Virus record (IMG/VR): IMGVR_UViG_2529292923_000015
Reading direction: 5' to 3' (one strand)
DNA: 18,284 nucleotides
Origin: a virus
Taxonomy: Duplodnaviria > Heunggongvirae > Uroviricota > Caudoviricetes
Of the stretch, positions 15,001 to 18,284 are shown in pieces. A program made the position numbers. The first letter of the stretch is position 1, and each line of letters opens with the position of its first letter.

Positions 15001-18000
15001 AACAGGTAAGACTGCATCCATTGCTTTAGCTGTGTTTCTTGTGCTGAATATATATTGGTGGGGCAAACGGAGGCACACAAAACTTTGCACTGGATTGCAA
15101 GGCTTTGTGCTATTCCGATAGTGGTTCAGGTGGAGTACCCCACCTTTTCATCAAGCCAGCCCACCCACCACTGCATCATTTCTCTGCGCTTATAGAGATA
15201 CTGAGCATGGTTGTAAATTCAGCAAACGACGCAATGTGTTTGACAAAAAATTAGGTAAGCGACTCGTCAGAACCGTATTGATATTTACTGAGAGCTCAGA
15301 TCAACTTTCCAGGGCAACAGATCGCGTACCCGGTTTGCCGGCCAGTCCTGGATATGTTCAATGACGTAACGCAGCCACTTTTCTGGCTCCACATTGTTCA
15401 GACGGCATGTGCCGATCAGCGAGTACAACACCGCCGCATGTTCACCACCGCTGTCGGAACCCGCGAACATCCAGTTTTTCCGGCCTACGGCCACTCCCCG
15501 TAAGGCGTTCTCTGCGATGTTGTTGTCGATTTCCACCCAGCCATTACTGCAGTACACGTTCAGTGCATCCCACTGTTTCAGCAGGTATGCGAACGCTTTT
15601 GCCGTATCTGAGTGACGCGACAGTGTTTTCATCTGTTGCTGTATCCAGTCATACAGTGACTGCATCAGTGGCGCGGCTCTGGCTTTTCTTGCCGCCAGAC
15701 GCTGTTCTGCTGAACAGCACCGGACCTCTGCCTCGATGGCATACAGTTCACCGATACGCTGCAGGGCTTCCGTGGTGATGTAGGTGGGCGCTCTTGCATG
15801 CACATCGTGGATTTTTCTCCGGGCATGAGCCATACACGCGGCTTCCGTTATTCTGCCGGATTCGTATAACGCCCGGTAACCACCGTAAGCATCGGCCTGA
15901 AGCACACCGCTGTAACCGGCCAGGTGATTTTGTGGATGGATACCTTTCCGGTCCGGACTGTACGCGAACCAGACCGCCGGGGGCATCTGTGAACCGGCGT
16001 TACGGTCATCACGGACGTAGACCCACAGCCGGGCTGTCCGGGTTTTACCGCTGCCCGGCTCCTGGACCGGGACGGGGATATCATCAGCATGGACTTTACC
16101 GGGCATCAGCACATACTGGCGCAGGACGTCATACAGCGGCTCCAGCAGTTCAGCAACAGCACCTGTCCAGCGCCCCAGTGTGGCACGGCTCAGCTCCACG
16201 CCCTGACGACGGTATATTTCTGACTGGCGGTATAACGGCAGATGGTCTGCATATTTCCCGGTGACAACATGGGCCAGAAGCCCCGCTCCGGCATAACTGC
16301 GTGCAATGGGTTTTGAAGGTACTGGTGCCTGCACGATATGGTCGCACCGGCAACAGGCCTGTTTCGGACGTTGTGTTTCGATAACCTTAAAGGCGCTGCT
16401 GATAAGCTCCAGTTGCTCTGACACATCACATCCCAGAGAACTGAGTTCACCACCACAGGCAGGACAGCATTCCTCTTCCGGCCGGATAACCCGGGTTTCA
16501 CGGGGAAGTGAGGCCGGTAACGGTTTACGGGCTGAAGACTGGCGCAGGGCGGATGGCAGTACCGGGTCATATTGCTCACCCAGCGTTTCCGCCATTTCTT
16601 CCTGAAGTGCGCTGATTCGCTCCTGTGCTTCCTGTATCTGCCGTTCGGTTTTTGCACGAAGTTTTTCTGAGCTTTTACCGAACTGCATACGTTGCAGTTT
16701 CGCAACCAGCGCCTTCAGCCGGTTGATTTCGGAAGCATAAGCCGCCACCCGCTGTGAGAGCAGGCGGTTGTATTCAGCCATCTGGCGGATGGTGTCCTGT
16801 TGCGTCTGCAACAGTGCCCGCAGGCGGGCGTTCTCATGAGCAAGTGAGGTGTCCATATCCTCACTTTACAACGGGTTATATGCGGATTCCAGCGCGTTCC
16901 GTTCGTTTCGGGTGCTTCCAGTTGATACCTTCAAGAAGCATGGATAACTGAGCCGGAGTAAGGTGCACCTTGCCGTCACGGGTGACTGGCCAGACGAAGC
17001 GGCCCCGCTCCAGGCGTTTGGTGAAGAGGCACAGTCCGTCACTGTCAGCCCACAACACTTTTATCTGGTCACCCCGGCGTCCGCGGAAGATGAACAGGTG
17101 TCCGGAGAACGGGTCATCCTTCAGGACGTTCTGAACTTTTGATGCCAGGCCGTTAAAGCCATTTCGCATATCGGTGATACCTGCAACCAGCCAGATACGC
17201 GAACCTGCAGGGAGAGATATCATCAGTGGCTGCTCCCTTTTATTTCGCGGATAAGTGTCTGTAATAACGCCGGCGTCAGTTTACCTTTAAGCCTGAGAGT
17301 TCCGGCCGGCAGAACCAGCTCACAACACAGACTGTCGGACGGTGTATTTATCTGCTCTGGTTCCTGTGCGGGGGCCGGGATTTTATTATCCGGCTCCGGC
17401 GTTAACGTCACGGGAAGCAGTGCCGGCATATTTTTTCCGGAAGGCAGCAGGCCACCTTTCCGGTATTGATGGCGCCAGTTGAAGAGCAGGTTATCGTTGA
17501 TTCCGTTTTCCCGGGCGATCTGCGCCACACGAGGCTCCGGCTGCAGTGACTGCTCCACTAAGGCGTAATTTTAAACTCATAAGGGAAGTTGGGCCGCCGG
17601 GTACGTTTTTCTACCACGGGGGCTTCGGATATAACGGTGCTTTCAGGACGTACGACTGGTACCGTGGAAAATTGTCCGTAAAAGGCAGGCATCAAGTTCC
17701 TGCTCCGACATGCCTGCGGGCAAAGGCCACGAAAGGCCAGCTCTCCGAAAGCGCACGAACATACTACAAACTGTTGATTTTGGTACACCCAGGCGACGCC
17801 CGGCCACAACCCGGGGTAAATGTTCTTCAAAGTGAAGACGTAAAGCTTCAGTGATCCAGGTCCGGTGTTTCATACGATAGTGTCCATTAAAAATGATGGA
17901 CATTATTTTTGTAGAGCCGGAGGAAACAGACCAGACGGTCTAAATGAGCCGGTTACTTTTCATCTGTTGCTGTATCCAGTCATACAGTGACTGCATCAGT

Positions 18001-18284
18001 GGCGCGGCTCTGGCTTTTCTTGCCGCCAGACGCTGTTCTGCTGAACAGCACCGGACCTCTGCCTCGATGGCATACAGTTCACCGATACGCTGCAGGGCTT
18101 CCGTGGTGATGTAGGTGGGCGCTCTTGCATGCACTATCGTGGATTTTTCTCCGGGCATGAGCCATACACGCGGCTTCCGTTAATTCTGCCGGATTCGTAT
18201 AACGCCCGGTAACCACCGTAAGCATCGGCCTGAAGCACACCGCTGTAACCGGCCAGGTGATTTTGAGGATGGATACCTTTCCGG

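Follow-up and report, generated by a model that had tools for sequence, protein, structure and literature searches.

ISCro1, an insertion sequence of the IS66 family, was first named in Citrobacter rodentium and is common in Escherichia coli. Annotated copies carry tnpA, tnpB and tnpC in this order, with tnpA normally a single ORF of 225 aa, and are bounded by imperfect terminal inverted repeats which start with GTAA. The published element has a length of 2,699 bp and generates an 8-bp target duplication (PMC12115866); in C. rodentium it has expanded to 24 copies (PMC3072379). Among 12 other ISCro1 copies which we compared, the 8-bp target-site duplication is perfect in 9-10. The copy described here has thousands of E. 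coli relatives with more than 99% identity, which PGAP names "IS66-like element ISCro1 family transposase" (99-100% identity).

A common insertion sequence at the end of a draft contig

The DNA analysed (the window) is the entire 18,284-bp draft contig AIEV01000024.1 of E. coli DEC1A (assembly GCA_000249055.2). Positions 8-15254 represent one end of a lambdoid prophage, with tail genes, nleB2, nleC, an nleH remnant and nleD, and share 98.9% identity with the prophage which EPEC strain E2348/69 carries at torS/torT. From 7954 to 15254, the window differs from GCA_900448265.1 at 2 of 7,301 positions. The following features are discussed below.

13927..14100, plus strand: nleH remnant, shared with E2348/69 together with the IS256 fragment
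15247..15254, plus strand: left flank AAAATTAG, a real junction and the end point of a deletion in the right arm of the prophage, 225 bp after nleD
15255..17956, minus strand: ISCro1 copy (IS66 family), 2,702 bp as compared to the canonical 2,699 bp, assigned from the PGAP names of >99% identical copies
15255..15280, plus strand: terminal inverted repeat at the tnpC-proximal end, GTAAGCGACTCG..., with the same end in 16 other copies
15285..16856, minus strand: tnpC, DDE transposase, 523 aa, intact (NF033517, E = 1e-142, 476 bits)
16876..17223, minus strand: tnpB, accessory gene, 115 aa, intact (NF033819, E = 5e-38)
17223..17903, minus strand: tnpA, three ORFs in the window, with NF038385 matching three fragments; split by lesions at 17531-17680
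17931..17956, minus strand: tnpA-proximal terminal inverted repeat, GTAACCGGCTCA... when read on the minus strand; the canonical element ends with base 17956
17957..17964, plus strand: TTTTCATC, the putative right-hand copy of the 8-bp duplication of a nested insertion (recipient positions 372-379); the left-hand copy is in AIEV01000036.1
17957..18284, minus strand: tnpC interior (positions 372-697) of the putative recipient ISCro1; forms the contig tail and carries +T18135, +A18183 and N18266

The element at 15255-17956 is an ordinary, well-known insertion sequence and there is nothing novel about it. It agrees with known ISCro1 in length class, in the gene order tnpA-tnpB-tnpC, and in the GTAA-initiated imperfect inverted repeats, for which 17 of the first 30 positions match (GTAAGCGACTCG... 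vs GTAACCGGCTCA...). Both ends recur unchanged in 16 other copies. It differs by private indels in tnpA, which are probably sequencing errors, and by its non-matched flanks, but biologically in nothing. For the region 15255-17500, CP035884 contains a counterpart with 100% identity, and the exact TnpC protein is present in 538 collection blocks. Thus, the IS66-family assignment of the preliminary description is confirmed by the profile matches to all three genes, by the inverted repeats and by the identity to ISCro1. The same description called the element intact, which applies to tnpC and tnpB but not to tnpA. It also raised the possibility that 17559-17956 is part of another element. The N-terminal peptide indeed looks IS21-like at first sight, but this candidate was rejected as the region codes for the N-terminal part of ISCro1 TnpA (NF038385) and leads up to the canonical end.

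The lesions in tnpA are +G17531/-G17538, +TA17566-7 and +A17680, accompanied by the substitutions G>T17602 and T>C17611. All six are private, being absent from 16/16 other copies compared. When 5,343 copies from complete genomes were compared, none exceeded 98.5% identity over 17500-17956, although perfect matches exist for the remainder of the element. The partial second copy, which directly follows the end at 17956 as had been reported, carries the two described single-base insertions when compared to 15626-15951 (T at 18135 and A at 18183). Its sole substitution, at 18266, is an N in the source record and an A in the window. In total, the last 754 bp contain nine lesions, as compared to 2 differences in the 9,577 bp before them (Fisher p = 3e-9). 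None of the lesions recurs in the 16 copies compared or in the 5,343 database copies, and several of them are changes in homopolymer length. The ISCro1 copies on two other DEC1A contigs (contigs 18 and 36) have different indels at other positions, and the orthologous copy of strain DEC2B is 100% canonical. That the lesions are private, clustered at the contig end and in one case an N argues for consensus errors. To judge from these patterns, both the tnpA frameshifts and those of the tail are most likely consensus errors from low coverage of a poorly supported repeat and do not represent pseudogenisation.

Further private single-base indels occur elsewhere in the window. These are -G3740 and +A3774, a compensating pair which splits tail gene K, and -T5987, which causes an additional frameshift in gpJ. 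Bases 1-7 of the window do not match the relatives. These are probably further assembly errors. In gpJ, about 45 substitutions between 5503 and 6516 are private to the contig when compared to E2348/69 and GCA_900448265.1, mostly with a spacing in multiples of three. Either gpJ has recombined here with another lambdoid J gene, or the consensus was mixed from paralogous prophages.

The right junction and its counterpart on a second contig

The 328 bp from 17957 to 18284 are a repeat, in direct orientation, of 15626-15951 (IS positions 372-697) with two extra bases. The joint at 17956/17957 coincides to the base with the canonical end of the IS. The 8-bp flanks of the window copy are unlike (AAAATTAG on the left, TTTTCATC on the right), and in the contig as assembled there is no duplication. 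From this, it had been suggested that the joint results from recombination or deletion between IS copies.

However, the reciprocal junction is found at the end of another DEC1A contig, AIEV01000036.1 (contig 36). There, torA, torC and the 5' part of torR are followed by a complete ISCro1, by ISCro1 positions 379 to 1 and by 464 bp. Read in IS orientation, this mirror junction is ...GACAGTGTTTTCATC / GTAAGCG, with the longer upstream context ...GTGTTTTCATC / GTAAGCG, so that the IS up to position 379 is joined to the IS from position 1. In the window, the right junction reads ...CCGGTTAC / TTTTCATCTG (also given as ...CCGGTTAC / TTTTCATCTGTT) and joins the IS up to position 2699 to the IS from position 372. 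The overlap of the two nested junctions is exactly IS positions 372-379 (TTTTCATC). As in other insertions of an IS into an IS, the duplicated target is present on both sides, with one side on each contig, but the window holds the right half only. The reciprocal junction with TTTTCATC argues for a simple nested insertion and against a recombination or deletion joint. As far as can be read from the two contig ends, 17956/17957 represents the right side of a same-orientation insertion of ISCro1 into ISCro1 with a normal 8-bp duplication. The statement that a target-site duplication is lacking thus holds for the flanks of the window copy as assembled and fails for the nested copy, where the matching 8 bp were found at the true ends. 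An adjacent deletion which started from a new copy and reached into the one in torR was set aside as the origin of the tail because of the reciprocal junction in contig 36.

When 240 bp across the right junction were compared to 5,426 complete E. coli genomes, all matches were in two pieces that do not abut. Neither the exact 30-mer of the right junction nor the 33-mer of the left junction has a match in species-representative genomes or JGI metagenomes, and ORFs spanning the right junction occur on AIEV01000024.1 only.

An explanation for the unmatched flanks is offered by the state of the assembly. The DEC1A lineage has at least 10 identical ISCro1 copies, and contigs 18, 24 (the window) and 36 each carry a full ISCro1 body with flanks that do not match, while contigs of sister assemblies usually end 250-500 bp into the IS. 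As identical multi-copy IS bodies which are longer than the reads cannot be threaded uniquely, the contig is expected to be collapsed or mis-threaded. Starting in the nleD flank, the assembler would have passed through a generic IS body and come out at the nested junction. In AIEV01000024.1, a true left flank would thus be followed by an IS body that stands for any of the copies and then by the nested junction of the right side. This resembles other collapsed or mis-threaded repeats at the ends of draft contigs, but here the terminal joint appears to be a genuine transposition junction and not random sequence. Since the window is a whole draft contig, what had been described as a second copy after 17956 is a ragged contig end. 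The best explanation overall, in which we have considerable confidence, is a draft contig that ends in a multi-copy ISCro1, with the nested junction joined to the left flank of the torR copy. We infer the linkage between flanks and IS bodies in DEC1A from sister strains and from the two contig ends.

There are two candidates for the recipient ISCro1 copy, as the nested left junction of contig 36 continues into the flank of a copy upstream of nleG and not into nleD, in a stretch that carries 6 indels. With a chance slightly below even, the nested pair lies elsewhere, probably at the GATACAGG site upstream of nleG, while the nleD/torR copy is a plain single one as in DEC2B. In contig 36, it is the left flank of this site that follows IS positions 379 to 1, and the empty GATACAGG site is contiguous, with 100% identity, in IS-free genomes. 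A tentative reading, which we place somewhat below even, has the nleD/torR copy as the recipient. The locus would then be nleD / IS(1..379) / IS(1..2699) / IS(372..2699) / torR 5' (numbers are IS positions), with each contig dropping one loop. This would explain why both nested junctions are found on the two contigs with flanks of this copy, but it implies that the GATACAGG flank in contig 36 is a mis-join. The occurrence of both nested junctions on contigs with torR-copy flanks is either a coincidence or a hint that the torR copy is the recipient. With either recipient, the deposited sequence is an unfaithful picture of the locus.

It is improbable that the deposited sequence is to be taken literally, as nleD followed by a complete ISCro1 and by a 5'-truncated, frameshifted second ISCro1, with deletion or recombination between IS copies as the cause and without a target duplication. 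This is how the sequence reads, an ancestral ISCro1 copy with the same orientation is present in torR of this lineage, 1.7 kb further right, and GCA_900448265.1 has a joint of IS positions 1-71 to a complete IS without a paired duplication. However, a deletion model does not predict that IS positions up to 379 are joined to position 1 in the same assembly with the same 8 bp. In addition, contig 36 has a complete IS beside torR 5' and not one that is truncated at position 372, and the frameshifts are specific to this contig, cluster towards its end and come with an N.

An even more doubtful reading is that the junction was present in a minority of molecules, for example by self-integration of ISCro1 with its right end attacking its own interior, and was assembled as a low-coverage spur. 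The same orientation, the exact IS end and the consensus around the joint, which looks like low coverage, would fit. Yet an attack by the right end alone would yield the joint of position 2699 to 372 without the reciprocal joint of 379 to 1, while both are present, and a staggered 8-bp duplication is typical of a normal two-ended insertion.

Least credible of all is that the joint never existed in cells and is due to a chimeric read or an assembler error. It does lie at a contig end with local errors and an N, is absent from other assemblies and has a parallel in a tnpC loop-back in another public assembly, but a break to the base at the IS terminus makes a random chimera unlikely and the independent contig end has the reciprocal junction with an exact 8-bp overlap.

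The parallel concerns a 178-aa TnpC fragment (P0002) with an internal loop-back duplication, which is probably a repeat mis-assembly inside ISCro1. A further DEC1A contig, AIEV01000018.1 (L032, 1-4730), carries a whole ISCro1 with 4 indels and unmatched flanks. One flank is a tail-fibre fragment with GCTCAAAA, and the other starts at position ~16 of a multi-copy IS4/Tn5-like element. Cases such as the window call for caution, as an IS at the end of a draft contig with unmatched flanks or apparent frameshifts should not be taken as biology. Beyond such housekeeping the importance is small, as a known element that behaves normally is viewed through a draft-assembly artefact.

Deletions beside ISCro1 at the prophage end

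The preliminary description considered the IS a breakpoint for rearrangement of the prophage end. This applies to the left junction (15254/15255) and not to 17956/17957, the junction for which it had been proposed. Strain DEC2B (AFJB01000019.1) is collinear with the window from 13937 through the whole IS to 17956. There, the IS is followed by AGCGTTCT, torR 5', torC and torA, and the region is in the interior of a 108-kb contig. DEC2B thus pairs AAAATTAG on one side with AGCGTTCT and torR 5' on the other side of a single ISCro1.

The IS-free locus of E2348/69 (L001) was used as reference ruler for the length of deletions. On this scale, the original torR target of ISCro1 is AGCGTTCT at 22976-22983. 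GCA_900448265.1 retains the left junction of the torR copy at 22983, and strains 2362-75, DEC2B and DEC1A retain the right junction at 22976. The left flank AAAATTAG ends at L001 position 21246. The sequence lost beside the IS is as follows.

GCA_900448265.1: left flank ends at L001 22983, 0 bp lost beside the IS
Strain 2362-75: left flank ends at L001 22733, 250 bp lost beside the IS
DEC1A and DEC2B: left flank ends at L001 21246, 1,737 bp lost beside the IS

In four related EPEC genomes, the deletions (0, 250 and 1,737 bp) thus form a nested series which is anchored in all cases at the tnpC-proximal end of the IS. In the torR copy, one IS end is thus fixed, the adjacent loss is variable among relatives and there is no matched duplication. 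As in other IS-anchored flanking deletions, a single IS is retained and its flanks are two former targets, AAAATTAG and AGCGTTCT. On comparison with the IS-free prophage end, which had been suggested before, the 1,737 bp missing at the left junction of DEC1A and DEC2B comprise the last ~110 bp of the prophage arm including attR (estimated from an alignment of prophages which differ in integration site), followed by torT and two-thirds of torR at its 3' side. The alignments to these relatives indicate that the left junction is a real IS-anchored deletion breakpoint at the prophage end. A look-up with a 157-aa TorR fragment (24/81 blocks read), which concerns torT and torR 3' of DEC1A, returned noisy assemblies which give the same product, too.

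We propose that ISCro1 first inserted into torR, duplicating AGCGTTCT, and that this copy would later have lost 1,737 bp beside its tnpC-proximal end. The loss may be a transposase-made adjacent deletion or may result from recombination with a transient second direct copy, which would lead to the same end product. Recombination between direct IS66 copies has been shown on the pAt plasmid of A. tumefaciens (PMC6778807). In the EPEC O55:H6-type lineage (DEC1A, DEC2B), the ISCro1-anchored deletion removed the right attachment site of an effector-carrying prophage together with torT and part of torR. Loss of attR should block excision of the prophage, and loss of torT and torR sequence should inactivate regulation of TMAO reductase.

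A joint analogous to that in DEC1A, in which an IS end meets an IS interior in the same orientation, occurs in GCA_900448265.1 (L015, 12663-12733 and 12734-15432). The order is torR 3' with AGCGTTCT, ISCro1 positions 1-71, a complete ISCro1, and GATACAGG with the nleG region. As the right flank belongs to the site upstream of nleG, a further IS-mediated rearrangement must have occurred in that strain; its reciprocal junctions were not found among the loci compared. In GCA_900448265.1 the joint lies at 71/72 of the IS, and in DEC1A at 379/380. This might indicate, although we consider it unlikely, that ISCro1 prefers same-orientation hops into the first ~400 bp of its own copies and also makes one-ended nested deletions at its tnpC-proximal end. 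If so, this would be a transposase-driven adjacent-deletion activity in the IS66 family, for which the chemistry of transposition is poorly known, and the activity would have removed attR and thereby locked the prophage with nleB2, nleC and nleD in place.

ISCro1 had also been considered as a cause of the nleH truncation. This candidate was rejected, as the identical nleH remnant and IS256 fragment are found in E2348/69, which has no ISCro1 nearby and has kept attR and torT. The remnant corresponds to a clean 1,467-bp deletion when compared to a locus with full nleH1 (L002) and lies 1.3 kb from the IS. Judged by its distribution, it is older than the ISCro1 insertion and unrelated to it. The fragment of an IS256-family transposase (window 14101-14330), located between the nleH remnant and nleD, is kept in all relatives, including those with complete nleH1.

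Activity of ISCro1 at this end of the prophage is clear from its insertions in gpJ, nleC, torR and ISCro1 itself, which are spread over different relatives. A further strain of the collection (AIFB01000029.1; L029, 9207-9705) has the element in nleC, which is truncated to 228 aa. GCA_900448265.1 has an ISCro1 copy in gpJ, with the 8-bp duplication corresponding to window positions 7954-7961.
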